Shown piece after piece: positions 17,533 to 36,278 of a stretch of DNA of 64,000 nucleotides. The first letter of the stretch is position 1. Each line of letters starts with the position of its first letter. Made by a program: the position numbers and the translations under genes. Source of the DNA: Gammaproteobacteria bacterium (GTDB lineage: Bacteria > Pseudomonadota > Gammaproteobacteria > UBA4575); the NCBI GenBank assembly GCA_026710875.1, contig JAPOQE010000113.1, forward strand, positions 3,144 through 67,143, written 5' to 3'. A model generated the notes under the pieces. The model searched no databases. It was given only the letters and a program-made list of their open reading frames with translations, and was not told the DNA's origin.

Positions 17533-18001
17533 GAAACAAATTGATCTTCTGGGGCGTAGGCTGCGCCCAATATACCACCGGTTCAGGCCCTGGCACACTC
17601 TAAAACAGGCAACAACGGCCCTTACACCCCTTCACCAAGCCATTGAACCCCGGACTTGATTGGCACGACAGTCCTGCAGACCCATGGCAAAAGCGCCGAT
17701 TCAGCATGGCCTTCCAAGGGCATACAGATCGTTTGGAAGGATCAGGAAGCGCAGCCTGGAACACCCCCATGATGGGCTCTGCTGTATACCAACTGTCCCT
17801 GGCAGGCTGATCACGAACGGGGCCGTATAATCTACCTGTCTGGCAAACTTATTCTCTTAAGTCGTTATAATCTATGGGATTAATTCCAATATCCCGATTG
17901 ATTGGGAAAATCGATCATTATATTGAGTAAAATGAATTAGCAACTTTCATTCAAGTACAATATAAATGCAGCATACGTTAGAAATAATAAAGACCTGATA
18001 A

Positions 18002-20218
<2,217 letters not shown>

Positions 20219-20233
20219 CCCCCGGGAACAAGA

Positions 20234-20261
20234 GAGGCGTTTCGGACAAACGGGACGCCTC
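20234..20261 (+). terminator. candidate katG terminator hairpin (GAGGCGT...ACGCCTC)
   Basis: 7-bp inverted repeat starting 16 nt after the katG stop. The downstream tract is pyrimidine-rich but not a clean U-run. Confidence 0.3.
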
Positions 20262-20524
20262 CCTCTTACCTCCTCGAACACGACATTCCCTGTCATCCAG
20301 CACAGGCCTCGAGGCTTGCTCGACTAACCATCACCCGTCTCACCAAGACCGATATTCGCCGCAGGTTTCTGCAGGGGTTGTTTGTGCATGCTCGTGATGC
20401 CTCGGCGCCATCAAAGGCTGCTGCCAACCGCTACCCGACAAGGCGAAGGCCCGACGCCATCCGGTTTCTATTTCGTCTTCAGGAAGTATAATGGCCCATT
20501 TTCTGAACTTCATGCCGGGGCATT

Positions 20525-21181
20525 ATGGATCTGGAACTTGTCAGCTTTAACGTGTGTCCATTCGTACAGCGCAGTGTGATTACCCTGAATCATAAAAATT
20601 GCGAGTACAGAATCACCTTCATCGATTTGAGCAATCCGCCGGACTGGTTCTTGCAGATTTCACCGCTTGGCAAAGTGCCGGTACTTAAAGTCGACAGCCA
20701 TGAGGTGCTGTTCGAGTCTGCCGTAATCAACGAATTTGTTGACGATGTAACCCCGGGTACACTCAAGCCTTCGGACGCACTGGTGCTGGCCAAAAATCGG
20801 GCATGGATCGAATATGGCAGCACGTGCTTGTCCGACCTGTACATGATGGCGGATGTCGAAACCGAAGAGGAGATGCAGCAACAGATTACAGTATGTGTGG
20901 AACGGCTGCAGTATGTGGAAAATATCCTGACTGACTCGACATTTTTCAATGGCGACAGCTTCGCCCTGGTCGATGCAGCCTATGCACCCCTGTTGTTCCG
21001 CCTGGACTTCATACACGAAAAGATCGGCTTCCTGGACTGGGGCCGATTACCAAAACTGAACCAATGGAAAGAGAATCTGCTGGCTTTGGAATCCGTACAA
21101 CAGTCGATAATCGAAGATTTTGAAGGGCACTATACGAACAAAATCAGGGCACAAAACGGATACCTGGGAAGCCTCCTGTAA
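20525..21181 (+). CDS. glutathione S-transferase family protein (Cys-type active site)
   Basis: Thioredoxin-like N-domain with CPF and VPVL motifs, then a helical GST_C domain. 218 aa. Confidence 0.8.
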   Translation: MDLELVSFNVCPFVQRSVITLNHKNCEYRITFIDLSNPPDWFLQISPLGKVPVLKVDSHEVLFESAVINEFVDDVTPGTLKPSDALVLAKNRAWIEYGSTCLSDLYMMADVETEEEMQQQITVCVERLQYVENILTDSTFFNGDSFALVDAAYAPLLFRLDFIHEKIGFLDWGRLPKLNQWKENLLALESVQQSIIEDFEGHYTNKIRAQNGYLGSLL

Positions 21182-21256
21182 CACCACCTTTTGTTCGCTA
21201 TCCTCCCGATGCCGTCCCCGCCTGGCAACCAACACCCGGGGAATTGACCGCTACCG

Positions 21257-23161
21257 CTAGGCTTCGGAGTTGTTCGTGATCTCGATGATCATCCGGTTCA
21301 GTCGATGAACGAAAGCCGCCGGGTCTTCGAGTTGGCCGCCCTCGGCAAGAATTGCCTGATCAAGCAGGATCATTGCCCAGTCTTCAAACCGGTCTTCAGC
21401 TTGTTCATCCTCCATTCTCCTGACCAGGGTATGAGCAGGGTTGATTTCCAACACAGGCTTGGTCGTCGGTAATTCATGCCCGGCCTGCCTCATCAGGTGC
21501 TGCATGTAGAGCGCCATGTCGTGCTCGTTCAGCACGATGCATGCAGGTGAAGTGGTCAAGCGCAGAGAAACCCGCACTGCCTCCACCTTGTCCTGCAATA
21601 CCTTGCCGATGCGCTCGACCAGCTTTTCTGCTTCTTTTTCCTTTTTCTTTTGTGCTTCCTTGTCTTCTTCTCCACTGATCTCGCCCAGATCGAGTTCACC
21701 TTTGGCGATGGAAGCGAAGGATTTTTCCTGGTACTCATTCAGATGGCTCATCAGCCATTCGTCGACCCGGTCTGAAAGCAATAACACTTCAATGCCCTTG
21801 TCACGAAAAATCTCCAGGTGCGGACTGCTCTTGGCCGCTGCATGGCTGTCCGCGGTGATGTAGTAGATTTTGTCCTGCTCCGGTTTCATACGGGCAATGT
21901 ATTCGTCCAGTGAGACGTGCTGAACCTCGCTGTCATTATTCGTGGTAGCAAATCTCAACAGCCCGGCAATTTTTTCCCGGTTGGCAAAATCTTCACCCGG
22001 ACCCTCTTTCAGAACCTTGCCAAACACCGACCAGAACTCCTGGTATTTGTCTGTCTCGTTGGCAGCCATGTTCTCAAGCAAGCCCAGGATCTTCTTGACC
22101 GAGCCCGAGCGGATGTTGTCGATGATCTTGTTGCTTTGCAGGATTTCACGCGAAATATTCAGTGGCAAATCATTTGAATCGATAATGCCCCGGATGAAAC
22201 GTAAATACCGTGGCAACAGTTTTTCGGCATCATCCATGATGAATACCCTTTGCACATAGAGTTTTACGCCGTGTGCGGGGTTGGGTTCAAACAGGTCGAA
22301 AGGTGCCTGCTTCGGGATATATAAAAGTGAAATATATTCTGTTTTGCCCTCAACGCGATTGTGGGACCACACCAGGGGCTCTGCAAAATCATGGCTGACG
22401 TGTTTGTAGAATTCCGTGTATTCCTCGTCACTGATTTCGCTTTTTGGCCGCGCCCATAGTGCAGATGCCTTGTTCACCGTTTCCCACTTTGCCGTAACCT
22501 CGCCCTTATCGTTCAGTTCTCTCATTTCAATGGGCAGGGGAACGTGATCCGAGTACTTTGTAATGATGGAGCGAAGGCCCCAGCTGTTGAGCAACTCCTC
22601 CTCATCCTTTTTCAGATGCAGGACAACTTCAGTTCCGCGCTTGGCCTTTTTTGCCTGCTCCAGGGTGTATGAGCCGGCACCCTCGGACTCCCAGCAAACC
22701 GCCTGATCGTCCGGCAGACCGGCCTTGAGGGTCGTCAGGGTGACTTTATCTGCAACAATGAAGGCAGAATAAAAGCCGACTCCAAACTGGCCGATCAGGT
22801 GTGAATCCTTGCTTTGATCCCCGGTGAGCTGGTCAAGAAACTCGCGGGTCCCTGATCGGGCAATGGTGCCGATATTGCCAACCACTTCATCACGGCTCAT
22901 GCCGATGCCGTTGTCACGTACCGTGACCGTGTGCGCATCCGTGTCAAACTCGATCTGGATCTTGAGATCCGGATCCTTGCTCAGCAAGGTATCGTCAGAC
23001 ACGCCCTCAAAGCGCAGCCTGTCGCATGCATCGGAAGCATTGGAAACCAGCTCTCGCAAAAATATCTCCTTGTTTGAATAAAGAGAATGAATCATTAAAT
23101 GCAAAAGTTGCGTGACTTCGGTTTCGAACTGCAGGGTCTCTTTTTTGGTTTTTGTGCTCAT
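21257..23161 (-). CDS. htpG: molecular chaperone HtpG (Hsp90)
   Basis: 634 aa. GHKL ATPase motifs (LYSNKEIFLRELVSNASDA, DNGIGM) and Hsp90 middle and C-terminal domains. Confidence 0.97.
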   Translation of the reverse strand: MSTKTKKETLQFETEVTQLLHLMIHSLYSNKEIFLRELVSNASDACDRLRFEGVSDDTLLSKDPDLKIQIEFDTDAHTVTVRDNGIGMSRDEVVGNIGTIARSGTREFLDQLTGDQSKDSHLIGQFGVGFYSAFIVADKVTLTTLKAGLPDDQAVCWESEGAGSYTLEQAKKAKRGTEVVLHLKKDEEELLNSWGLRSIITKYSDHVPLPIEMRELNDKGEVTAKWETVNKASALWARPKSEISDEEYTEFYKHVSHDFAEPLVWSHNRVEGKTEYISLLYIPKQAPFDLFEPNPAHGVKLYVQRVFIMDDAEKLLPRYLRFIRGIIDSNDLPLNISREILQSNKIIDNIRSGSVKKILGLLENMAANETDKYQEFWSVFGKVLKEGPGEDFANREKIAGLLRFATTNNDSEVQHVSLDEYIARMKPEQDKIYYITADSHAAAKSSPHLEIFRDKGIEVLLLSDRVDEWLMSHLNEYQEKSFASIAKGELDLGEISGEEDKEAQKKKEKEAEKLVERIGKVLQDKVEAVRVSLRLTTSPACIVLNEHDMALYMQHLMRQAGHELPTTKPVLEINPAHTLVRRMEDEQAEDRFEDWAMILLDQAILAEGGQLEDPAAFVHRLNRMIIEITNNSEA

Positions 23162-23191
23162 CTTGTCTCTTGGGTTTTCAGAATCAAAGGG

Positions 23192-23398
23192 TTACCGGTT
23201 GATATCGCCATCCACTTCCAGGGACAACGTTGTATCCGGAGCGTGATCGCCATAGTCGGTCAGGTCATGCAGGCACACTTTCAGGCGCAGCTTGCTGACG
23301 TCAGGGTTTCTTGCCAGATGTCCGACAATCGCCTCATCAGCGCGGACTCCAAATGTCTTGAGCAGTGCACGAATGTCTTTTCTGCTGTTGTCTTCCAT
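23192..23398 (-). CDS. small hypothetical protein (68 aa) upstream of htpG
   Basis: Clean ORF in the htpG leader region. No recognisable family. Confidence 0.35.
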   Translation of the reverse strand: MEDNSRKDIRALLKTFGVRADEAIVGHLARNPDVSKLRLKVCLHDLTDYGDHAPDTTLSLEVDGDINR

Positions 23399-23430
23399 TG
23401 CTTCCCTCCGTTAACGGTGCATAAAGTAGT

Positions 23431-24129
23431 TTATAGGGTCATTTTCCGAGAAATAAAGGCCATCAGAAAATCTTTCAGTATCTTTTGAGCCTGACGGAAT
23501 CTTTCACAATCCGCCAGCATATCCTCCAGCCCCTGAATATACGGACCCGATTTGCCGGGATCGCCACATGCCTGGTAGATGGCCTGCACGTGGCTGGGCA
23601 GCATCTCAAGATGGAACTGCAGGGCGATTGCATGGTTTTCATAGACAAAAGCCTGGTTTTCACAGCCCTCGCTGGAGATAAAATGACTGGCACCTGCGGG
23701 AATCGAGAAGGTATCTCCATGCCAGTGCAGGGCCTCGAAGCTTTCTGGGAAACCCTGTGCACAGCTACCGGGTTCCCGCGTGCACTGTACCGGATACCAG
23801 CCAATTTCCTCGTGTGCGTTTTTACTGACGCTGGCCCCCAGGACCTCGGCAAGCAGTTGCGCCCCGAGACATACACCCAGCACAGGGATCTGTCGGCGCA
23901 GGGCGGCTTCAATGAATTCCTTCTCCTGCGCCAACCATGGGTAACGGTCGACGTCATGCACGCCCATCGGTCCGCCCATGATGACCAATGCATCGATGTC
24001 GTGCACCAGGGGCATTGGCTGGTCGTGATACAGGCACGTGTTTGAAAGACGATGCCCCTCGGCGACAAAAACATGCTCCATGCTTCCCAGGCCCTCGAAA
24101 GGCACGTGTTTCAGGTAATGGATGTGCAT
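23431..24129 (-). CDS. class I glutamine amidotransferase-like protein
   Basis: GATase1 fold with nucleophile elbow GVCLGAQLL and HGD-type His near the C-terminus. Confidence 0.75.
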   Translation of the reverse strand: MHIHYLKHVPFEGLGSMEHVFVAEGHRLSNTCLYHDQPMPLVHDIDALVIMGGPMGVHDVDRYPWLAQEKEFIEAALRRQIPVLGVCLGAQLLAEVLGASVSKNAHEEIGWYPVQCTREPGSCAQGFPESFEALHWHGDTFSIPAGASHFISSEGCENQAFVYENHAIALQFHLEMLPSHVQAIYQACGDPGKSGPYIQGLEDMLADCERFRQAQKILKDFLMAFISRKMTL

Positions 24130-24161
24130 GGCCTGAGTGCTGCTGTAGGCAGTGGTCCCTT

Positions 24162-24638
24162 TCAGTGTCCGTGCAGGATCTTTTGTTCGTGATCAAGCAG
24201 CCATTGTTTGCGGCGCACCAGGCTGCCGTCCTCGTCGCCCATGAACCCGCCCAGACCGTTTGCAGCCACCACACGATGACAGGGAACAATCAGCAGCAGG
24301 TTGTTGCGCCGGCAGGCATTTCCTACTGCGCGGGGGCCGGATTTTATCTTTCGGGCAATCTCTCCATAGGTCTGCGTTGCACCAAACGGTATTTTTGTGA
24401 TCTGGTCCCAGACACGCACCTGATAGTCCGTCGCACCCGGAAACAAAAACGGGAGATCAAACTGCTGCAGACGGCCGCCAAACCAGGCCTTGAGCTGTTT
24501 TTGCACGTCCCGGGCAAAGGGTTCTTTTCCTGCTGAAGCCCGTGCTTTGGTAGCCCGCACGGCCACCACGTAACCGCCTTCATATTCAACAGCGAGGTTC
24601 CCGATCGGCGAACTTGTGACGAATTTGTTCATTGGCAT
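24162..24638 (-). CDS. ogt: methylated-DNA--protein-cysteine methyltransferase
   Basis: Active-site IVPCHRVV motif and helix-turn-helix YGEIA. 158 aa. Confidence 0.9.
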   Translation of the reverse strand: MPMNKFVTSSPIGNLAVEYEGGYVVAVRATKARASAGKEPFARDVQKQLKAWFGGRLQQFDLPFLFPGATDYQVRVWDQITKIPFGATQTYGEIARKIKSGPRAVGNACRRNNLLLIVPCHRVVAANGLGGFMGDEDGSLVRRKQWLLDHEQKILHGH

Positions 24639-25049
24639 GACTGATTTTACCCGTGTCTTGGACAGGCAGCGTCATTATTTCAGGAATACGAAAGCGAGAA
24701 GCCGCAAACCTCGATGGCGTGGATGCAGGAATCGGTCAGGTGAATTCGCGTGATGGCACACCTGTGCATTGTTCCGGCAGGGGGGCAAGACGGAGGTCCT
24801 TCCCGGAGCAATGTTATGAGTGCTAGTAAGATTGGTAACTCTTTGATTATCTTTAAATAGGTAATGCTCGGCACACTCAGTGTAAATCTTTTTAGTTCAA
24901 TGAGTTAAGCCAGTATAGTGCAAGTAGTGAAAGCTAAGCGGTGTACCTAGTGTGCACCTAAAACATAGGTTTTCCCAGATCGATTATCGTCATTTTGTCG
25001 CAAGGAGGGTATATGAAAATACCCTAAAATTGTTGGACGTTATTATGGC

Positions 25050-26441
25050 CTAAAGAAAATAATCGGCACGGTCAAAACTGGAATCAAGCCGATCCAGTTT
25101 TTCCGGATGGTTGATCAAATCCTCGATAAACCAGTTGGCATGGTTGTACAGACAGGTGACGTCCTTGCACTCCTCGGTGGCATCGAACGTTTCAATCAGC
25201 CGCAAGGTATTTTTCTGTGCGGCAAGTAGGCTGTCCTGCGTTGCATAGGCATGTTTGCCTCCTATCAGCGCCTGGGGAACATGGCGGTATACCGGGCAGT
25301 TGAAGATGCCGAGTGGGCTGACTACCTGCCTGAAATACTGCATGTGACAATTGTGCGGCTGTCGGCTGTAGTTCATGTACGTGCCATTTTCCAGCACTCT
25401 CAGGTTGGTGCTTTCCACGACTGTAAAGTTTTCATCTTCCAGTTTTTGAGCCTCGTGGATGGCATTGCGAATTTTGGTCATCGTCAAGTCTACGTGCTCT
25501 CGCCCCTTTTCTATGCCGACAACTTCGGCATTGTTCAGTTCGGAACGGGTAAGGAACGGCTTGTAGGAGATGTAGTCGAACTGGTGCTGCCTGGCCAGTT
25601 GTGCCGCAATCACCATTTCATCGATATTTTCAATGATCCCTGTGTCGTTGGTTTCACAGTCTTTCCACACGATGATGTAGCTGAACCCGATCATGAGTTC
25701 AGGGTTTAGTTGCTTGATGGGTGGAATTTGTTCGCAAATCCAATCCAGTGTGCATTTCTTGCTGCCGGGCTTGTGCATGGCACGGAAGGTTTCATTGGTG
25801 CCGGAATCCAGAGAAAGCCGAACCCAGTCACGCTTTCCCAGCACGTCGGCCACCGCATGAATCTTTCTCATCATGCTGCCATTGGTGACCACACCTATCT
25901 GCACGTCCATTGCCTTCAAGTGGCGCACAACATCCTCAAAACCCTTGTAGGCCGTGGGTTCACCGCCGCCAATGATGATCACGGATCGCAATCCATGTTT
26001 CACCAGTTGTGTCAAAGAATTCTTGAGCAACTCATGTTCGTAGTTGATGTTCTTGTTCAGAATATCCATGTCCACACAATGATCGCAGCGGTAGTTGCAG
26101 GCAGTGGTCACGTCCAGATTGATGGAAACCGGTGCATGCCGAGGTGCGTTTTCCAATGCCTGCTCAAAGGTTATGGCATCGGCCGCATAGCCCTCCCGCC
26201 ACTCTACCTGCCAGCGCACATATTCTTTCAGGTTTTTCAGTACCCCAGGTTGGCGGAGCTTGCCCATAAAGTCATGCAGGGGGGATAGCTCTGTCTGCTT
26301 CTCAACCCGGTTTTCCGTGGCTTTTACGTGCAGGGGAAGATGGTTGGTTTGCAGGTTCGATCTTAAGTCGAACTTGCTAAAGTTGATCAGCGGTGAAACC
26401 TCGATCAGCACCTCACCGCTTTCAGAGTGAATTTTTTGCAT
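25050..26441 (-). CDS. radical SAM domain protein of unknown function
   Basis: CNYRCDHC (CxxxCxxC) plus GGGEP motif. About 110-aa N-terminal extension. C-terminal Cys cluster (NCH...NCP...ECKDVTC). AT-rich gene inside a low-GC island. Confidence 0.8.
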   Translation of the reverse strand: MQKIHSESGEVLIEVSPLINFSKFDLRSNLQTNHLPLHVKATENRVEKQTELSPLHDFMGKLRQPGVLKNLKEYVRWQVEWREGYAADAITFEQALENAPRHAPVSINLDVTTACNYRCDHCVDMDILNKNINYEHELLKNSLTQLVKHGLRSVIIIGGGEPTAYKGFEDVVRHLKAMDVQIGVVTNGSMMRKIHAVADVLGKRDWVRLSLDSGTNETFRAMHKPGSKKCTLDWICEQIPPIKQLNPELMIGFSYIIVWKDCETNDTGIIENIDEMVIAAQLARQHQFDYISYKPFLTRSELNNAEVVGIEKGREHVDLTMTKIRNAIHEAQKLEDENFTVVESTNLRVLENGTYMNYSRQPHNCHMQYFRQVVSPLGIFNCPVYRHVPQALIGGKHAYATQDSLLAAQKNTLRLIETFDATEECKDVTCLYNHANWFIEDLINHPEKLDRLDSSFDRADYFL

Positions 26442-26580
26442 GGAATTAATTTGTGTCTATCGCTTGGTAGATTTGCAATAAATGCGCCATCCCGTCAATC
26501 AGTGCAGTTTCGCCTAAGCTAGGGTTGAATGAAAATAAACCACAAGATACCTGATCAAGCTGGGCCTTATTAGCTAATTG

Positions 26581-27492
26581 TCAAACTCTGTATACTGCCT
26601 GATTTTGAAGTAATACAAATTGCTCTTGTTTCTCTTGTTCGCAAGTTGTACGAGTCAATGCATCAAAGTTTGTAACAATAGCTTCAATCATTGGGTTACG
26701 GTTTTTTTCACTTCCTCCAACATGGTAGAAGTGTTCCCGCGTATAAATATTAAATTTACTCCACATTGATTCAATGTATTCATTTTTCCGAAAATCATTG
26801 TGATGCCAGGTGGATAGGATGAATCTACACTTTTTCTTATTTAATACATGAAATAATGCCTGTTCATGTTCGCTATCCCAACCACTGTAGTAGTCAACAT
26901 GTCGGTCAATGTAAGGTGGGTCACAATAGACAATATCGTCTTCCTCTGCCAATTTAACAGTTTTCTCAAATTGTTGACATTTGAAAGTGAAATCTTTGAG
27001 TTTCAGAAGCTGCCTTACATAATGAACTTGGTTAACAATTTTCGTTACGTAAGCTTGAGAAAATCTTTTAGATTTTTTACAAAATGGTATGTTGAAGCTA
27101 CCTTTCCGATTAAACCTAATCATCCCATTGAATCCGGCACGATTTATGAAAAGGAAGTCTAATGGCTCATGTTTTTCATTAAACCTTTCACGGATTTCAT
27201 AGTAGTGAATATCCCCCTTTTCTTGCAGTAATGAGCCTTCTTCATTTAAATAATTTCTTACAATCTCAGGGGTGATCTTTCCGTCCTTTACCGCACTGTA
27301 GAAATTGATTATGTGTGGGTTCGTATCACACATCAACGCATGTTCCGGAGCAATATTGAACCCGACAACTCCCGTCCCTGAAAATGGCTCAATCCACTTA
27401 CCATTAAATTCGTCTGGAACAATGCTTTTGATCCAAGGCACGAGTTTAGTTTTAATGCCTTGAGATTTAATTGGAGGTACACGTACTTTCAA
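26581..27492 (-). CDS. M.EcoRV-like N6-adenine DNA methyltransferase (Dam/D12 class)
   Basis: Strong similarity to M.EcoRV ([23 protein letters not shown] FxGxG motif, catalytic DPPY, WHHND). The stop overlaps the REase gene by 4 nt. Confidence 0.9.
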
Positions 27493-28334
27493 TATCTCAC
27501 CTTGCTCGGATCACTATTGTTTTTAGGAACTATTAGCGAACTGTCACCATTCCTATATGCAACAAACTCTTTTAAGTTGTTAATCTTTTTCGTTCCACCT
27601 TTATTGTCAGGAATCGTAATCTTGTTGAAGTTAATCCAGTATTCGTCAAACCAGTCCTCACCTAGCTGTGAAAACATGCCATCTCCGTTAATAATGTCCA
27701 TAATACGGTTTATACTGCCAATGTTGGCAGTATTTCCGCTTCCTCTTTTATCACTCGCAATCTTCCATTTCTCAGCAACAAAGAATTGAAAGTTACCTAC
27801 AACTGATTTAATAGCTTGCAATTCTTCAAGCTTGTGAGGTCTCGTTTCATCAATTGCAGTGTTTTCTATGCGGTCATAAATTATTCCTAAGCAGAAATGG
27901 CCAGCATATGACTTATACGGAAATCTAATATTTTTAGTGCTATCTCGGTTTTGAAAATACTCGCCATGTGAGCCGAGGGTGAATCCATTGCATAAGTATG
28001 CCTTATCAGGATTGCGGTAAGTTGTTTTAAAGTCCACCGCAAACTTCACAGATTCATCATCAGACTTAACAAACGAGATGTCGGGGTAGTGATTCTGGTG
28101 TTCAGGCAAAACGATTCTATAACCATGCCTTTGAGAGAATTCCAGAATTTTCGGAAACAAATGAATCTCAAGGATTTTCGACACGATCTTAGTGTCAGAA
28201 GAAATAGTGTATACATTACGGAAAACATCGATAAATCCTTTGACAGCCCATTGCCCATCTTCTGAACTGATATGCTGCTGCAAGACCTCCACATGGTCTT
28301 TTAATTGTATTTCAAATTCTTCTTTTGCTGTCAT
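27489..28334 (-). CDS. EcoRV-family type II restriction endonuclease
   Basis: Collinear similarity to R.EcoRV: QNHYPD (PD), AVDFKTTY ((D/E)xK), [17 protein letters not shown]. Translationally coupled to the methyltransferase. Confidence 0.85.
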
Positions 28335-28372
28335 TTAATTCCTGTGCCTTCTGTACGCATAATGCACACAAC

Positions 28373-28654
28373 TCACAACATGGGCAAATTTAGTATTTTT
28401 GCGAGGAATCGTCCATAGTGAATACGGACCTCAGGCAGTATGGAGAGCGCATTCAGATAGATTCTCTGACGAGCAGGTGCTGTCGGGTCAGATTTGCCTG
28501 ACACCAATGCCGTGAAGTACCTCAGTCGATCAACGACATGCTCTTGAGGAAGAAGAGTTTTCGCCAGACGAACAGGGTCCAGCCATTTATACGGAGTACC
28601 TTTTAGAGCTCCATAGTACAAATTGAAACCATCAACATAGATCCAGGTTTTCAT
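28373..28654 (-). pseudogene. truncated NYN-domain (LabA/DUF88-like) gene remnant
   Basis: IYVDGFNLYYGA N-terminal NYN signature, but only about 94 aa. Full-length homologues are about 2-3x longer. It ends at the REase start. Confidence 0.55.
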
Positions 28655-28660
28655 CGGCTC

Positions 28661-28698
28661 CAAAACGAAGCAAGGGCAACCCCTAGGGGGCTGCCCTT
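28661..28698 (-). terminator. rplS operon intrinsic terminator
   Basis: CAAGGGCA-(13-nt loop)-TGCCCTTG GC-rich hairpin followed on the minus strand by CUUCGUUUUGG. Confidence 0.5.
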
Positions 28699-28914
28699 GA
28701 GCTGACAGCATGCTGCCAGCGGGTAATTAGTTGCATTCTAGGACAGACGAATGGTACGCGCTGCCAAGCGTAAAGGTGGTTGTGTGTCCGTTTGAAATTT
28801 GAGGCCGGTATCAAGCAGCTGTGTGCTTGATAGCCTTTACAATGAGGTCATTGAGTATTCTTACGCTGACATCAGCCATTCTGCAGTCATGCTAGTCTAC
28901 TATAGACAGGTATT

Positions 28915-29259
28915 CTAAATCTTTTCCTTTATTCGTGCAGCCTTACCGGTTCTTCCACGCAGGTAGTACAGCTTGGCACGCCTCACCTTGCCCTTGCGTT
29001 TCACCTTGATGCTGGCAATCAGGGGGCTGTGTGTCTGAAAGGTACGCTCAACGCCTTCACCGTGAGAGAGTTTCCTGACCGTGAAAGCCGAGTTGATTCC
29101 ACGGTTGCGTTTGGCAATCACGACCCCTTCAAAGGCCTGCAAACGCTCCCGGTTACCTTCCCTTACCTTGACCTGTATCACGACGGTATCTCCGGGATTG
29201 AATTCCGGAATGTCTGTTTTAAGCTGTTGCTGGTCCAGCTCTTCGATGATGTTGGTCAT
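28915..29259 (-). CDS. rplS: 50S ribosomal protein L19
   Basis: 114 aa, a typical L19 sequence. It ends the rpsP-rimM-trmD-rplS operon. Confidence 0.97.
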
Positions 29260-29282
29260 GGCTATCTCTCACCTTGAATTCA

Positions 29283-30026
29283 CTAATTCTTCTGCTCTTG
29301 CAGGTACTCCTCAAGCAGGTCATCTTGCTCCTCGCTGAGTTCCAGCTTGGCAAACAAGTCGGGTCTGCGCAGGTAGGTCCGTCCCAGCGCCTGCTTTTTC
29401 CGCCAGCGCTCTATGGCCTGATGATCCCCTTGAAGCAGCACTTCCGGGACTTCACGGCTATCAACGATCCCCGGGCGCGTATAATGCGGGCAATCGAGCA
29501 TCCCGTCAACAAAGGAATCCTGTCGGGCCGATTCCTCGTGTCCGAGTGCCCCGGGAACATGCCGGATCAGGGCATCGATTAGCAGCATGGCAGGCAGCTC
29601 CCCTCCACTGACAACAAAATTGCCAACGGCAAGCTCTTCATCGGTCTCCGCCTCAATGAGCCTTTCATCAATGCCCTCATAGCGGCCTGCCACCAGCACA
29701 AGATTATTATAGTCACGCAAGCGGGAGACATCTTCGTGCCCGAATAGCTTGCCTTGTGCGGACAAGCACACCACGCGGCTGTTCGGCTCGTGACCACGCG
29801 CCTTGCGGATCGCTTTCTGCAGCGGCTCATAGCACATCACCATGCCAGGACCGCCTCCGTAAGGCCGGTCATCGACATGGCCGTGGAGGTCCGTTGAGAA
29901 TTCTCTCGGGTTCAAGGTATGCAGTTCGACCAGGCCGCTCTCGAGCGCTCGGCCGATGACACCATAACGAGCCAGGTTCAGCACCATTTCCGGAAACAGC
30001 GTGATAATCTGAATACGCATGATCAC
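29283..30026 (-). CDS. trmD: tRNA (guanine37-N1)-methyltransferase
   Basis: SPOUT/TrmD motifs and operon position. Confidence 0.95.
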   Translation of the reverse strand: MIMRIQIITLFPEMVLNLARYGVIGRALESGLVELHTLNPREFSTDLHGHVDDRPYGGGPGMVMCYEPLQKAIRKARGHEPNSRVVCLSAQGKLFGHEDVSRLRDYNNLVLVAGRYEGIDERLIEAETDEELAVGNFVVSGGELPAMLLIDALIRHVPGALGHEESARQDSFVDGMLDCPHYTRPGIVDSREVPEVLLQGDHQAIERWRKKQALGRTYLRRPDLFAKLELSEEQDDLLEEYLQEQKN

Positions 30027-30031
30027 TGCGA

Positions 30032-30550
30032 TCAGCTGAAGTCGAGTTGCCAGTCTACCGTCATCAGCTTGCTCTCAAGGTCTACTTCTCTCACAACCTC
30101 TCCAGGAAGGTAAGGGATCAGAACCTCGGCCTCGTCTGCACTGCCCTTGACGACAAGCACGTCGTTCGCACCGGTTTCCACGAGGCGTTCGATTTTTCCC
30201 AGCGCTTGTCCCGTCACGGTCTTCACATCCAGCCCGACAAGCTGGTACCAGTAATATTCACCTGCAGGCAATTCCGGTAGTTGCGTACTCGATACCCAGA
30301 TCTCGGCGTGCTTGAGGGCTTCTGCATCCGTGCGCGTGTCAATCCCTGCCAGATGCACAACCACTCCTCGACCGTGCACTTTGCCCTGGTCCACCTGATG
30401 TGAGCTTTCGCTATGGCCCTGGCGCAGATCCCACGCGGCATATTCCAGAATTTGCTCTTTGGGGCGACAGAAAGAATGGATCTTGAGCCAGCCTTTTATC
30501 CCGAAGGCTTCCTGCACATAGCCGACATGGATGCCTGGATGCTGACCCAA
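30032..30550 (-). CDS. rimM: ribosome maturation factor RimM
   Basis: RimM N-terminal domain and PRC barrel. 172 aa, between rpsP and trmD. Confidence 0.9.
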   Translation of the reverse strand: MGQHPGIHVGYVQEAFGIKGWLKIHSFCRPKEQILEYAAWDLRQGHSESSHQVDQGKVHGRGVVVHLAGIDTRTDAEALKHAEIWVSSTQLPELPAGEYYWYQLVGLDVKTVTGQALGKIERLVETGANDVLVVKGSADEAEVLIPYLPGEVVREVDLESKLMTVDWQLDFS

Positions 30551-30574
30551 ATTCCCGAAGGGATGCGATTTTTG

Positions 30575-30826
30575 CTACGCCGCCTGTTTGCGGTGTTGCT
30601 TGACCAGACTGGCAACGCGTTCCGACGGCTGTGCTCCATGCCCCAGCCAGTGTTCATAGCGTTCGTCCTCAATGTGAAAATTGACCTCCTGGCCTTTGGC
30701 AACCGGATTGAAATAGCCGATACGTTCGATATACCCGCTGTCCCTGCGCTTGCGGGAATCCGTTACCACAATGTTGTAAAAAGGGCGTTTTTTAGCTCCG
30801 CCCCGGGACAGTCGAATCGTTACCAT
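30575..30826 (-). CDS. rpsP: 30S ribosomal protein S16
   Basis: [21 protein letters not shown] is a canonical S16 N-terminus. Confidence 0.97.
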
Positions 30827-31077
30827 AAAATTTTCCAGCCAGTGTCTGAATCACGCATAATCATGTCGGACCGTGCATTGTACGCAATTTAGCCTGAAAT
30901 AAAAGCCAAAAAGGGCGCAGCACAACAGAATTTGCAGCAGAAATGAAACGCTCCGGGCCGGGTTGGCATACCCGACTCGACGGATTTGCAGGTAACCGAT
31001 ACCCATCCACGGTGCGTGACAGCCAATGCAGGCAGATAAAACGGCTCGACACACCTCAACATGAATGCGCGAACGGC

Positions 31078-32433
31078 CTAATGAGGAGGGGGCATCTTGC
31101 CCTGCATGGACTGCATCATCCTTTGCATCCCTCCCTTCCTGGACGCTTTTTTCATCATTTTCTTCATCTGCAAATGCTGTTTCAGCAAGCGGTTCACATC
31201 CTGTACCTGCGTGCCTGAACCTGCTGCTATCCTTCGCTTTCGAGCATTCTTGATCACATCGGGAAAGCGCCGCTCATGCGGAGTCATCGAAGAAATGATT
31301 GCAATCATTCGCGGCAACATGCGCTCATCCCCCAGTGCGTTGGCATTCTTGGGCAAGCCTGCAGTGCCGGGAATCTTGTCCACCAGGCCCGCCAGGCCCC
31401 CCATGTTCATCATTTGCTCAAGCTGATTTTTCAAGTCGACCAGATCAAAGCCCCTGCCCTTTTTGATTTTCCGGGCCAGTTTTTGTGCCTGTGCCTTGTC
31501 GACTTCCTGCTCAACCTTTTCCACCAGGCTGACAACATCACCCATGCCGAGGATACGCGAGGCGATGCGCTCCGGGTGAAACGGCTCCAGTGCCGTCACT
31601 TTCTCCCCGGTACCGATGAACTTGATCGGCTTGCCCGTGATTTCACGAACGGACAAGGCGGCACCTCCGCGTGCATCACCATCGGCCTTTGTGAGAACAA
31701 CGCCGGTGAGGGGCAGGGTGTCATTGAAGGCCTGGGCCGAGACCGCGGCATCCTGACCACTCATGCTGTCGACCACGAACAGGGTTTCCGCGGGTTGTGC
31801 AGCCGCATGCAGGGCACTGATTTCCTGCATCATGTCCTCGTCGACATGCAAGCGGCCCGCCGTATCGATCAGCAAGACATCCTTGAATTGCTTGCGGGCG
31901 TGGTCCACGGCCCGCTTTGCGATGTCGACCGGGTTTTCCGAGGACTCGCTCTGGATGAACTCGGCACCGACCTGCTGGGCCAGTGTCCTTAGCTGATCAA
32001 TTGCTGCCGGGCGGTATACGTCACAACTGGTGACCGCCACACTCTTTTTCTGCTGTTCACTCAGCCAGCGTGAAAGTTTTGCCACGCTGGTGGTCTTGCC
32101 AGAACCCTGCAGGCCGGCCACCAGGATCACTACTGGAGGCTGTGCCGCAAGCGTCAGTCCCTCGTTGGCATCACCCATGAGATGCACCAGTTCATCATGG
32201 ACGATCTTGATAAAAGACTGGCCCGGTGAAAGACTTTGCAAAACCTCTTCTCCAAGCGCCTTTTGCTTGACCCGGTCTACAAATTCCCGTACCACGGGCA
32301 AGGCTACATCTGCTTCGAGCAGGGCCATACGCACTTCGCGCAAGGTGCTCTCGATATTCTCCTCGGTAAGGCGCGCCTGTCCGCGCAGTTTTTTTACCGT
32401 CCCGGAAAGTCTGCCGGTTAAATTCTCAAACAT
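31078..32433 (-). CDS. ffh: signal recognition particle protein Ffh
   Basis: NG domain GTPase motifs (GLQGSGKTT, DTAGR) and a Met-rich M domain. Confidence 0.97.
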   Translation of the reverse strand: MFENLTGRLSGTVKKLRGQARLTEENIESTLREVRMALLEADVALPVVREFVDRVKQKALGEEVLQSLSPGQSFIKIVHDELVHLMGDANEGLTLAAQPPVVILVAGLQGSGKTTSVAKLSRWLSEQQKKSVAVTSCDVYRPAAIDQLRTLAQQVGAEFIQSESSENPVDIAKRAVDHARKQFKDVLLIDTAGRLHVDEDMMQEISALHAAAQPAETLFVVDSMSGQDAAVSAQAFNDTLPLTGVVLTKADGDARGGAALSVREITGKPIKFIGTGEKVTALEPFHPERIASRILGMGDVVSLVEKVEQEVDKAQAQKLARKIKKGRGFDLVDLKNQLEQMMNMGGLAGLVDKIPGTAGLPKNANALGDERMLPRMIAIISSMTPHERRFPDVIKNARKRRIAAGSGTQVQDVNRLLKQHLQMKKMMKKASRKGGMQRMMQSMQGKMPPPH

Positions 32434-32701
32434 GAGCGTCTATGTACACTGGGTTATGTGGGAAATCTGCCGTATCCGTGGGCCTGCACACAGTATAGTG
32501 GAAACCGGTGCACGGACATGCCCCGGAAGGGCCCGCACGCAAAGGCATTGGTGGATTGGTGCTATCATGCCTGTAAATCTTATTAAAATCTGGCCTGACC
32601 TGCTGCACTTTGTATACTTGTCCATGGAATGATCATCAAGACTTTTATTCTGGAAGGTATATGAAAAGAATATCCCAGACCCGCCCGTACCTTTCACGGC
32701 C

Positions 32702-33529
32702 ATGCCAGGCGTACTGAAATTCGCGGCCATTGCACTCTACGCCCTGGCTTTCGTGGTGATCCTGTGGCGTACGCACAACCTGGATGAAAACAGGCGAGAC
32801 AGCAACCGCAGCCTGATGCTGGCGGCCTGGGGGGCAGCATGCCTTGCACATGCCACGTACCTCTATCCGCACACCTTTACAGCCCAGGGTCTCAACCTCA
32901 CGTTCTATAATGTCGTATCCATTTTGTTTTTTATTGTGGCCGCCCTGATTCTGGTACTGGCCACGGCCCGCAAGGGAGAGCTCCTCGGTCTGCTCGTATT
33001 GCCCCTTGTGATGGTCAGCATTGCATTGACGATCTACAAGCCGGAAGTTGCCGCCTCTACTGTCAATCTGCACGGTCTGCAGCTGCACATTGTCACCTCG
33101 CTTTTCGCCTTCAGCGTTTTGGTCATTTCCGCATTGCAGTCCATACTTTTGTTCTCTCAGGATCGTCACCTGCGCCGACATCAGCTGAGTGGAATGACGC
33201 GTGCCCTGCCGCCCCTGCACGATACAGAGAAGTTCCTGTTCCAGACCATCGCTGTCGGATTCATCCTGTTGAGCGCAGCGCTGATCACCGGATTTCTTTT
33301 CCTCGAAGACATGTTTGAGCAACATGTCGCACACAAGACCATATTATCGGTTCTGGCATGGCTGATCTTCGCCATGCTGCTTTTGGGCCGCTGGCAGTTT
33401 GGATGGCGCGGGTCCATTGCCATGCGCTGGACCTTGGGTGGCTTCGGGTTCTTGCTCCTCGCCTACCTGGGCAGCAAGTTTGTGCAGGAATTGATCCTGC
33501 ACCGGGGGATTTTTGTCCCGGTTACTTGA
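32702..33529 (+). CDS. ypjD: cytochrome c assembly (CcsA-like) inner membrane protein YpjD
   Basis: Polytopic membrane protein divergent from ffh, as in the E. coli ffh/ypjD/yfjD arrangement. Confidence 0.8.
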   Translation: MPGVLKFAAIALYALAFVVILWRTHNLDENRRDSNRSLMLAAWGAACLAHATYLYPHTFTAQGLNLTFYNVVSILFFIVAALILVLATARKGELLGLLVLPLVMVSIALTIYKPEVAASTVNLHGLQLHIVTSLFAFSVLVISALQSILLFSQDRHLRRHQLSGMTRALPPLHDTEKFLFQTIAVGFILLSAALITGFLFLEDMFEQHVAHKTILSVLAWLIFAMLLLGRWQFGWRGSIAMRWTLGGFGFLLLAYLGSKFVQELILHRGIFVPVT

Positions 33530-33589
33530 CAATACCAGCAGTACAGCCGTTAATGTAAGCATCAGTATCAGTGGAGGGTCGCGTAGACC

Positions 33590-34867
33590 TTGGACGACTA
33601 TTCGATAGGCACACTGTCTTTAGTGTTGTTTATTTTATTTATCCTCTCGGCATTTTTCTCAGGCTCGGAAACCGCACTGATGGCGCTGGATCGCTATCGC
33701 CTGCGTCACATGGCCCGCACTGGAAAGCGGGGTGCAAAACAGGCGCAAAAACTGCTTGAAAACCCGGATCGCCTCATTGGCCTGATCCTGCTAGGTAACA
33801 ATGTGGTCAACATCCTGATCGCACAGCTGTCTGCCTACATCGGCTACCGCCTGCATGGGGACATTGGAATTGCGGTAGCAACGTTTATCCTGATTTTCGT
33901 CATTCTGATATTTGCTGAACTCACTCCGAAAACCGTTGCAGCACTGCATGCGGAAAAAGTCGCACTGCCTGCTGCCATGGTGTACGTGCCATTGCTTGCC
34001 ATGACCTACCCCTTTGTCTGGACAGTGAACCTGTTTGCCAATTCCTTGCTGCGACTGTTCGGGATAGATGTCAAAAACAGTCCCCTCAACTCACTGAGCC
34101 ATGAAGAATTGCGCACCGTGGTGGATGATGAACACACCTCCCTGTCCAGCGAACACCAGCAGATGCTGTTAGGGGTTCTTGATCTTGAAAAGATCACGGT
34201 TGAGGACATCATGATCCCCAAAAACGAGATTGTCGCACTCGATCTGGAAGATGACTGGGAAGATGTCGTCTCGCAGCTGAAAAATATCTCCTACACACGA
34301 ATCCCTGTTTGCCGCGGTAACATCGACAATGTCGTCGGCTTTTTGCATGTGCGCAAATTGCTGATCAAAATCATCCACAAGGAGATCGAACTCGAAGATC
34401 TGAGCCAGGCACTGCGCGAGCCCTACTTCATCCCGGAAGGGACCAACCTGAAAAAACTCCTGTTCGAATTGCAGGACAAGAAAAGGCGCTTCAGCCTCGT
34501 CGTGGATGAATTCGGCGACATCCAGGGGCTGGTCACCCTGGAAGACCTGCTTGAGGAAATTGTCGGAGAGTTCACCAATGACCCGGCTACCTATGACGTC
34601 GAGATTCACCCCCAGCAGGATGGCACCTTTTTCGTGGACGGCGGCACACACATACGCGATGTCAACAAGGCACTCAATGTAAAACTGCATGATCATGGCC
34701 CGAAAACCATCAATGGCCTGATTCTGGAGCAGATGGAATCCATACCGGAACCGGGTACCACAGTACTGATCGACGGCTATCCGATCGAAGTCGTGCGCAT
34801 TCACAAGAACGCCGTTCGCACTGCCAGGATCAGTCCGCAACTGCGCAAGCATCAAGAGGCCGTCTAG
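33590..34867 (+). CDS. HlyC/CorC (CNNM) family transporter, DUF21-CBS-CorC
   Basis: N-terminal DUF21 TM domain, CBS pair and CorC_HlyC C-terminal domain. Confidence 0.85.
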   Translation: MDDYSIGTLSLVLFILFILSAFFSGSETALMALDRYRLRHMARTGKRGAKQAQKLLENPDRLIGLILLGNNVVNILIAQLSAYIGYRLHGDIGIAVATFILIFVILIFAELTPKTVAALHAEKVALPAAMVYVPLLAMTYPFVWTVNLFANSLLRLFGIDVKNSPLNSLSHEELRTVVDDEHTSLSSEHQQMLLGVLDLEKITVEDIMIPKNEIVALDLEDDWEDVVSQLKNISYTRIPVCRGNIDNVVGFLHVRKLLIKIIHKEIELEDLSQALREPYFIPEGTNLKKLLFELQDKKRRFSLVVDEFGDIQGLVTLEDLLEEIVGEFTNDPATYDVEIHPQQDGTFFVDGGTHIRDVNKALNVKLHDHGPKTINGLILEQMESIPEPGTTVLIDGYPIEVVRIHKNAVRTARISPQLRKHQEAV

Positions 34868-34925
34868 CCCAGGATTCCTGTTGTACAGCCCAAAGATGCA
34901 CCCGCCTCTCGGGTACAATACTCAA

Positions 34926-36278
34926 ATGGCCAAAGAATTAAGCTTTGCATGTACTGAATGCTCGGGTCTTTTCACCAAGTGGACCGGCCAGTGTCCGAAC
35001 TGCGGCGCCTGGAACACGATTGAGAAGCAGTCGGCTGTGCTGCGCCAAAACAAGGCGGTTTCGCTGCTGCATGCAGGGGACGTTTCCGAAATCCAGGCCG
35101 TCAGCGAAATTTCCTTCGAATCACAGGACCGCACGCACACCACCCTTGCAGAACTCGACCGGGTACTGGGTGGCGGGATCGTCACGGGTTCCGTGGTGCT
35201 GGTCGGAGGAAATCCGGGTATCGGTAAATCGACCCTGTTGCTGCAGGTCCTGTGCGCCCTCGAACACCAGCGGGCGCTGTACGTGACCGGTGAAGAGTCC
35301 CTGCAGCAAGTCGCGCTTCGGGCTGAACGGCTCGGCTTCAAGAATGCGCCATTGCGCGTATTGGCCTCGACCCGGCTCGAGGAAATCCTGGCCTGTGCCA
35401 TGCGGGAGCGCCCGAGCATCATGGTGATCGACTCGATCCAGTCGCTGGCTTCCGAGAATTCACCTTCGGCCGCAGGCTCGATTTCCCAGGTGCGCGAATG
35501 CGCCAACAGGATTACCCAATTCGCCAAACAAACCGACACCACGGTCTTCGTGATTGGGCATGTCACTAAGGAAGGCTCGATTGCAGGCCCCCGAGTGCTG
35601 GAGCATGTAGTCGACACGGTGCTGTATTTCGAGGGAGACGAAGGCGGTCGTTACCGGGTGTTGCGGGCTGCCAAAAACCGCTTTGGGGCAGTGAACGAGT
35701 TGGGCGTCTTCGTCATGCAGGATACGGGCCTGAAAGGGGTCAAGAATCCGTCGGCCATATTTTTGTCGCGCCGCGCCAACATCGCACCGGGCAGCGTGAT
35801 CACCGTGACCTGCGAGGCGACACGTCCCTTGCTGCTGGAAGTGCAGACCCTGGTGGAGGACACCCCGGCTTCGCATCCGAAGCGGGTTGCCCTCGGGATC
35901 GACCAGAACCGGTTGACCATGCTGCTGGCGATATTACACCGCCATGGCGGTGTGGATATCTATGACAAGGACGTATTTGTGAACATCGTCGGAGGCGTCC
36001 AGCTGAAGGAAACCGGAGCCGACCTGGCGGTATTGCTGGCCACCTACTCCAGCTTCAAAAATCTCACGCTGGACCGCGGGCTTGCCGCCTTCGGTGAAAT
36101 CGGGCTTACCGGCGAGGTTCGCCCGGTCTATAACGGGCTGGCCCGGTTGAAGGAAGCGCGGGAACACGGGGTCACCAAAGTCATCATACCCGAGGCCAAC
36201 CAGCCCAAGACCCGGCTTCCCGGACTGGAAATCATTGCCATCAACCAACTCGCCGAAGCGGTGGGGCACATTGCCTAG
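34926..36278 (+). CDS. radA: DNA repair protein RadA/Sms
   Basis: Zn ribbon CxxC..CxxC (CTECSGLF..CPNCGAW), RecA-like Walker A GNPGIGKST, KNRFG motif and Lon-like C-terminus. Start at MAKEL (34926). Confidence 0.95.
   Translation: MAKELSFACTECSGLFTKWTGQCPNCGAWNTIEKQSAVLRQNKAVSLLHAGDVSEIQAVSEISFESQDRTHTTLAELDRVLGGGIVTGSVVLVGGNPGIGKSTLLLQVLCALEHQRALYVTGEESLQQVALRAERLGFKNAPLRVLASTRLEEILACAMRERPSIMVIDSIQSLASENSPSAAGSISQVRECANRITQFAKQTDTTVFVIGHVTKEGSIAGPRVLEHVVDTVLYFEGDEGGRYRVLRAAKNRFGAVNELGVFVMQDTGLKGVKNPSAIFLSRRANIAPGSVITVTCEATRPLLLEVQTLVEDTPASHPKRVALGIDQNRLTMLLAILHRHGGVDIYDKDVFVNIVGGVQLKETGADLAVLLATYSSFKNLTLDRGLAAFGEIGLTGEVRPVYNGLARLKEAREHGVTKVIIPEANQPKTRLPGLEIIAINQLAEAVGHIA

Follow-up and report, generated by a model that had tools for sequence, protein, structure and literature searches.

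An intact EcoRV-family restriction-modification gene pair of predicted Type IIP, probably horizontally acquired, downstream of rplS in a gammaproteobacterial genome

Within the 64,000-nucleotide stretch of gammaproteobacterial DNA analysed here (the window), two adjacent genes of the minus strand most probably form an intact, horizontally acquired Type IIP restriction-modification (R-M) operon of the EcoRV family, a reading to which we give a probability of about 0.8. According to this reading, the first gene, R, would encode an endonuclease acting as a homodimer on unmethylated GATATC sites, with a blunt cut at GAT^ATC predicted by analogy, and the second gene, M, would encode a methyltransferase that modifies each strand of GATATC at N6 of its first adenine. 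R and then M would be expressed as one transcription unit, the translation of M being presumably coupled to that of R through a TTGA overlap and an internal Shine-Dalgarno sequence. The pair came within a 4.1-kb mosaic insert that begins 2 nt past the rplS stop codon. A preliminary description of this DNA had already proposed an EcoRV-type R-M pair, and this identification is borne out by the profile score of R, by the gapless alignment of M with M.EcoRV, and by the presence of the PD...DxK and DPPY motifs. The features discussed below are collected in Table 1.

Table 1. Features of the inserted segment and of its R-M pair, in window positions.
Feature	Positions	Strand	Details
Whole inserted segment, 4,097 bp	24816-28912		Missing from sister contigs L096, L098, L100
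Radical-SAM gene, 463 aa	25050-26441	(-)	MCY4420839.1, inside the insert
M gene, Dam-family (D12 class, alpha-type) N6-adenine DNA methyltransferase, 303 aa	26581-27492	(-)	GenBank MCY4420840.1
R/M junction	27489-27503	(-)	AAGGTGA Shine-Dalgarno at 27503-27497, 4-nt spacer, then TTGA at 27492-27489
R gene, EcoRV-family Type II restriction endonuclease, 281 aa	27489-28334	(-)	GenBank MCY4420841.1
R ribosome-binding site	28335-28343	(-)	AGGA at 28343-28340
Truncated NYN-domain / HEC-09-like gene, 93 codons of about 200	28373-28654	(-)	PADLOC PDLC04163
Hairpin, 13-bp, GC-rich, followed by a T-rich run	28671-28699	(-)	Predicted fold energy -26.2 kcal/mol

The assignment of R arises in the first place from its match to the Pfam profile PF09233 (Endonuc-EcoRV), which reaches 395.8 bits (E=8.6e-119) for a cut-off of 25 bits and extends over profile positions 2-243 of 244. 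In addition, the EcoRV chains of the PDB, i.e. the sequences of the crystal structures, match residues 24-257 of R at E=1e-40, and the identity to R.EcoRV of plasmid pLG13 amounts to 34-35%. The roles of D74, D90, K92, K38, and the R-loop in EcoRV have been described (PMC4081073). In the window protein, E56, D85, D101, and K103 are the counterparts of the catalytic E45, D74, D90, and K92 of EcoRV, K49 is the counterpart of the minor-groove lysine K38, and these five positions are invariant in an alignment of the window R with EcoRV and twelve relatives. Inactivating substitutions at D74, D90, or K92, which the preliminary description had named as evidence that would speak against its proposal, are thus not found, all three residues being conserved in this alignment. 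The R-loop reads GSGNTAN in the window protein (residues 198-204) and GSGNTTN in EcoRV (G182-N188); its G, S, G, N, T, and N are invariant across the aligned proteins, and the position equivalent to T187 of EcoRV is occupied by Ala throughout the clade. As for the Q-loop, it reads HQN in the window protein as against QQN in EcoRV, with Q80 invariant and N81 nearly so. When compared with 82 relatives, R departs from them at a single one of the 124 columns that are conserved at 95% or more, and the deviating residue, P77, is the one found at this position in EcoRV itself. R is therefore provided with each hallmark of the EcoRV endonuclease family that a sequence is able to display, and is predicted to be a PD-(D/E)xK enzyme of the EcoRV fold.

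The similarity of M to its EcoRV counterpart is higher, with 61% identity to M.EcoRV of pLG13 over 274 residues and zero gaps (373 bits, E=3e-135). M also scores 172.1 bits against PF02086 (cut-off 22), 200 bits against the dam family TIGR00571 (cut-off 114.85), and 439.8 bits against the PADLOC profile MTase_II (PDLC03264). Its motif I, FSGTG, lies at residues 37-41 and its DPPY motif at residues 191-194, this succession of FxGxG and DPPY being the motif order of the alpha class. The similarity to the enzymes methylating GATC is in contrast limited to 73-81 bits for EcoDam and DpnM, and is no higher than 81 bits for T4 Dam. Besides, the score of M against the NCBIfam Dam equivalog NF008152 (90.8) is far under the cut-off of 441, which indicates that M is not a GATC Dam. 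On these grounds, M is an ortholog of M.EcoRV, itself a member of the Dam lineage, rather than of the GATC Dam enzymes, and it carries all the traits of the M.EcoRV family that can be sought at the level of the sequence. The residues K9, L122, R124, and P134 of EcoDam, which we take to be DNA-contact residues, align with residues of both M and M.EcoRV and are retained in the window protein. The start codon of M is TTG; since the next methionine is residue 54, which lies past motif I, a functional M could only be produced from this TTG.

Relative to the annotated EcoRV-family pairs, the window copy shows three unusual residues in M. Among 82 relatives, 81 differ from it at S38, the x of FxGxG, and at S141, which stands in place of the Pro of CKKPxRF, a residue found in 99% of the relatives. 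Both deviations weigh against the preferred reading. That S141 would be the counterpart of EcoDam P134 was considered and rejected on the basis of the EcoDam alignment, where this Pro is kept as P136 of the window protein, in FNIPF. M.EcoRV itself is presented as recognising an expanded EcoDam site by the title of a paper (Jurkowski et al. 2007) that PMC4417163 and PMC3526282 cite.

The prediction of GATATC as the target of the pair relies on the 61% gapless identity between M and M.EcoRV together with the catalytic residues and the K38 lysine that R has in common with EcoRV and its nearly identical R-loop. It could alternatively be supposed that this EcoRV-family pair is active in restriction and modification but has a changed or relaxed specificity, for instance for a related hexamer or a degenerate site. 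Several features that weigh against the preferred reading point in this direction: R and EcoRV share only about 35% of their residues, Ala replaces T187 in the recognition loop throughout the clade, M carries S141 instead of an almost universal Pro, and the literature provided no clade member with a published specificity. Nevertheless, the alignment of M with M.EcoRV is free of indels over its whole length, methyltransferases at about 61% identity normally share their specificity, the six other residues of the R-loop do not vary, and the QN of the Q-loop is retained. A shift in specificity consequently seems improbable to us, and recognition of GATATC remains the favoured prediction. Regarding the modified base, the mark left by M.EcoRV is on the first adenine, G(m6A)TATC; the GAT(m6A)TC mark put forward in the preliminary description therefore probably designates the wrong base. 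A literature search on the adenine methylated by M.EcoRV returned nothing usable.

The preliminary description had also pointed out that GATATC sites are still present in the window. The count gives 21 of them, none being located between 23207 and 35954. Dinucleotide shuffles yield 11.05 sites on average, which would suggest an over-representation, but this apparent excess vanishes with a maximal-order Markov model, for which 19.4 sites are expected (observed/expected 1.08), so that the sequence displays neither avoidance nor real enrichment of GATATC. Such an undepleted site frequency fits a recent arrival of the pair and fits equally well a silent system; a recent arrival is also suggested by the presence/absence polymorphism of the locus described hereafter. 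If R is active, these 21 sites must be methylated by M.

The horizontal acquisition that had been proposed from the foreign base composition is directly proven by the occurrence of an empty site. The GC content is 0.366 for M and 0.381 for R (0.37 for the pair), compared to 0.54 in the rest of the window. In three sister contigs (L096, L098, and L100), retrieved by an exact look-up of the RplS protein and 97-98% identical to the window at the nucleotide level, rplS immediately precedes ogt, the GATase gene, and htpG; this is the order of the window minus the island. The alignment with these three empty-site contigs places the breakpoints at 24815|24816 and 28912|28913, both clean to the base. 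The low-GC island reported earlier is thereby real, except that the foreign DNA extends beyond the two genes to which it had been restricted. Following the direction of transcription, this segment is made of a 258-nt leader including the hairpin, the fragment of an NYN gene, R and M, the radical-SAM gene, and a 231-nt tail, and it is a mosaic put together elsewhere.

Since this sequence comes from a metagenome-assembled genome, the island might in principle be an assembly or binning artefact, in which foreign reads would have been joined into the contig. A second, partial copy of the radical-SAM gene, 88.6% identical, is listed under a nearby accession number for a gammaproteobacterial metagenome-assembled genome that seems to be the assembly of the window itself, and such repeats can cause mis-joins; moreover, the left junction 24815/24816 is seen in the window contig only. 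Against this, a contig from an independent sample (L099), 99.97% identical to 26368-29416, carries the same insertion and runs from rplS across the right junction, the NYN fragment, and both R-M genes into the beginning of the radical-SAM region. This second occurrence, to which the base-clean character of both junctions with respect to the three empty sites can be added, argues against an assembly artefact, which we regard as very unlikely indeed.

The mechanism of insertion was searched for at several levels. Neither target-site duplications nor terminal repeats were detected at the ends of the insert beyond short matches at chance level, such as an inverted repeat of 17 nt that contains 2 mismatches and the 7-nt ACTAGCA, present close to either end. 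In the same line, no tRNA gene is located within 18000-36000, and no integrase or transposase was seen among the open reading frames of 22000-33000.

As far as the other genes of the insert are concerned, the NYN fragment consists of the first 93 codons of its gene and covers positions 5-87 of the 203 positions of the HEC-09 profile; its homologs carry the NYN domain PF01936, and the missing C-terminal part is found nowhere in the window. This truncated remnant beside the cassette indicates that the insert has undergone decay. The genomic contexts of the NYN homologs were examined as another way to reach the empty site, and this approach was dropped as the matches correspond to unrelated mobile contexts. 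The radical-SAM segment is 84-85% identical at the nucleotide level to L091-L095, over 25047-26512 only, and brings along 70 nt of its own upstream region. Its counterpart in the sister genomes is located in a cluster of LPS-core glycosyltransferase genes, and the insert gene is a diverged paralog of this counterpart. The hypothesis that the encoded protein is a prokaryotic viperin was discarded, since it scores 65.8 bits for a cut-off of 180 and matches a generic radical-SAM core only. Neither this gene nor the NYN fragment can be considered as a member of the R-M cassette: neither of them accompanies the R-M genes in 86 relatives, and positions 26578 and 28343 bound the DNA that is similar to other R-M loci.

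These two limits enclose essentially both coding regions and nothing more, as determined from the extents of the blastn matches. As the similarity stops at the ribosome-binding site of R, no conserved promoter moves with the cassette, and as the relatives share only the two coding regions, the mobile unit is essentially a bare gene pair. The R-M pair thus behaves as a compact two-gene unit that is often transferred.

At the level of the operon, the letters were read directly. R begins with an ATG preceded, 5 nt upstream, by an AGGA Shine-Dalgarno sequence, and its start codon is separated from the NYN fragment by 38 nt. At the other end of the gene, the junction reads ...AAGGTGAgataTTGAaa..., where the TTG start of M and the TGA stop of R share the letters TTGA, and where the Shine-Dalgarno sequence of M is placed within the 3' end of R. 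The tandem, R-first arrangement with a 4-nt overlap announced in the preliminary description is thereby recovered, with both reading frames on the minus strand. Such a configuration has the geometry of translational coupling, as judged from its letters. No gene for a controller (C) protein was detected near R, either as a small open reading frame or as a tblastn match with C.EcoRV, the Geobacillus C protein, or the RHH proteins of L006 and L007 as queries. The divergent M gene and the HTH gene upstream of R, which together define the C-controlled EcoRV architecture, are thus both lacking at the window pair.

Between rplS and R, a crude scan with a sigma-70 consensus revealed no sigma-70-like promoter on the coding strand. 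The search for an internal promoter of M or an antisense promoter inside R was likewise negative, with 7 consensus sites for 6.2 expected in shuffled sequence. Furthermore, the hairpin of Table 1, which comes after rplS and ahead of the NYN fragment and R, resembles an intrinsic terminator and would attenuate read-through from the rplS operon. Given the missing promoter-like site and this strong hairpin, expression of the pair is only putative.

These observations, to which the lack of GATATC avoidance and the adjoining gene remnant can be added, would also agree with a pair that is non-functional for restriction, either because R is silent or inactive or because the operon is unexpressed and only M matters, if anything. 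Among the relatives, at least one may carry a damaged R (L061) and another one a split M (L043). Nonetheless, the reading frame of R is complete, 123 of its 124 highly conserved positions are kept, with all the catalytic residues among them, both genes possess a good Shine-Dalgarno sequence, the same insertion persists at 99.97% identity in a second sample, and the promoter scan is a crude consensus search. We consequently see only a slim chance for the loss of restriction, and the interpretation as an intact R-M operon is preferred.

Comparison at the scale of the clade shows how ordinary this organization is. The R protein has 7,128 relatives in the databases, hundreds of them at 68-79% identity, in hosts belonging to the Gammaproteobacteria, Betaproteobacteria, Nitrospira, Anaerolineae, Acidobacteria, and others. 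In all the 86 clade loci examined (80 species genomes, two plasmids, and four metagenome contigs), R is followed by M in tandem, and an EcoRV-type C gene was encountered in none of these 86 relatives. The R-first tandem order, which had been presented as a distinguishing feature of the window, is in fact the invariant layout of its clade; given these 86 loci, the tandem, C-less operon is the norm of the family, from which the textbook EcoRV layout departs as the exception. The junction is formed by an xTGA overlap of 4 nt in 56 of 84 loci, M starts with TTG in 8 of 84, the closest relatives among them, and R is full length (274-290 aa) in 83 of 84, the window being counted. Of 53 relatives, 49 have a cassette whose GC content is below that of the flanking DNA, the median difference being 0.12. 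In a few relatives, an RHH (CopG/RepB-like) regulator abuts R.

These data raise the question of how pairs of this C-less clade escape self-restriction when they reach a new host. It is conceivable, though rather unlikely in our opinion, that restriction is delayed after transfer in another way than through a C protein, or that the clade differs subtly in specificity owing to T187A. In the first case, the delay may come from a strict translational coupling with a weak TTG/ATG restart, or it may come from the RHH (CopG/RepB-like) regulator. Both readings, delay mechanism and specificity shift, concern the whole clade and not the window specifically, as does the question itself.

It should be stressed that the pair is an ordinary member of a very common and known family. 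Both proteins are already in the public record, as 'restriction endonuclease' for R and as 'Dam family site-specific DNA-(adenine-N6)-methyltransferase' for M, and NCBI gives close relatives of the former the name 'EcoRV family type II restriction endonuclease'. The significance beyond annotation is small. The locus offers a base-resolved case of a compact Type II R-M pair that moved into a housekeeping locus as a unit of just two genes, the empty site being kept in sister genomes, and it illustrates that the textbook EcoRV layout, with its divergent M and its C gene, is a minority arrangement within its own family. If cloned, the enzyme would most likely turn out to be one more EcoRV isoschizomer. 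In methylation-aware metagenomics, the predicted m6A at GATATC could help binning or the linking of mobile elements to their hosts.

Among the known systems, the EcoRV system of the E. coli plasmid pLG13 (NC_005019.1), composed of R.EcoRV, M.EcoRV, and C.EcoRV, belongs to the same enzyme families as the window pair. It shares with it the PF09233 domain, identical catalytic residues, the K38 lysine, and a nearly identical R-loop. The two systems nevertheless differ in several respects. The window R counts 281 aa compared to 245 aa for R.EcoRV, with extensions at both the N- and C-termini; on pLG13, the M gene and a C (HTH) gene are divergent and the latter overlaps the R start, whereas the window pair is tandem and C-less; and the latter is a chromosomal insert, whereas EcoRV is borne by a small mobilizable plasmid. 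The preliminary description was hence right in stating that the gene order departs from that of the enterobacterial plasmid, but pLG13 is characterized by a C gene that precedes R in addition to the divergent M, and not simply by a divergent pair. C.EcoRV is a documented controller protein (PMC2632904). The same combination of a divergent M and a C gene is encountered on the Geobacillus plasmid pEF60063-2.

More distant systems resemble the window pair in either layout or fold. EcoRI and Eco29kI are R-first Type II operons without a C protein, whose genes overlap or are adjacent, and they are controlled by promoters and antisense RNAs inside the R gene. Their R-first, C-less layout is similar to that of the window pair, but the enzyme families are unrelated. 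EcoDam, DpnM, and T4 Dam belong to the same fold family as the window M and have the same motif order, with a similarity much weaker than that to M.EcoRV.

Finally, the closest parallels are the pairs annotated as 'EcoRV family type II restriction endonuclease' and 'Dam family methyltransferase', which belong to the same clade and possess the same architecture. Examples include Rhodothermus marinus DSM 4252 (plasmid pRMAR01), Antarctobacter heliothermus (plasmid pSMS3-1), Methylobacter, Methylomonas, Chromatium, Thiothrix, and many metagenome-assembled genomes. Their R proteins are 55-79% identical to that of the window, their genes overlap or nearly abut, they are C-less, and their GC content is usually under that of their host; in terms of structure, nothing distinguishes them from the pair described here.

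The methyltransferase gene M of the window (26581-27492, minus strand) departs at two positions from what is otherwise almost invariable: codon 38, in the FxGxG motif, and codon 141, in the CKKPxRF loop, both specify Ser, while 81 of the 82 relatives, together with M.EcoRV, carry Met and Pro, respectively. Possibly damaged copies are encountered among the 84 loci, window included: in one EcoRV-family endonuclease gene R (L061, 4001-4828), the reading frame apparently meets a premature in-frame stop, and one M gene (L043, 4822-5866) falls into two tblastn pieces separated by about 140 nt. Both cases may reflect occasional decay of the cassette.

The truncated NYN-domain gene, similar to PADLOC HEC-09, breaks off right where the R-M cassette borders it. 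Its homologs in other loci, found in mobile or defence surroundings, are also often fragmentary, being split in L089 and interrupted by an IS element in L090. Since the listed 112-aa ORF runs through the neighboring hairpin, and since a comparable extension (MLSAQG...) is present at the N terminus of homolog P0130, this hairpin segment probably moves together with the NYN gene and does not seem to be the original terminator of rplS.

Features in the window and in relatives of the R-M pair
Feature	Location	Strand	Remarks
Truncated NYN-domain / HEC-09-like gene	28373-28654	-	breaks off after about 93 codons
GC-rich hairpin with T-rich run	28671-28699	-	13 bp; -26.2 kcal/mol; upstream of NYN fragment
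Radical-SAM gene	25050-26441; upstream part 26442-26512	-	463 aa; within insert
Ribbon-helix-helix gene abutting R	L006 3722-3922		
Ribbon-helix-helix gene abutting R	L007 5788-6000		
Ribbon-helix-helix gene abutting R	L008 173-382		

The radical-SAM gene of the insert has a diverged paralog in the LPS-core cluster of the sister genomes, 84-85% identical at the nucleotide level and about 89% at the amino-acid level, which is flanked there by a GFO_IDH_MocA oxidoreductase gene and a heptosyltransferase gene. Similarity of its product to viperin is limited to the generic radical-SAM core. A second, partial radical-SAM copy (MCY4420516.1) appears to be present in the same MAG.

Finally, no ribbon-helix-helix gene lies next to R in the window or in the 80 genome loci. 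In three close relatives, a gene of this type (66-70 aa; Pfam RepB-RCR_reg, CopG-like) adjoins the R start, at the position where the HTH controller gene (C) of the EcoRV system would be expected. Its product may control an EcoRV-family system without being an HTH protein.
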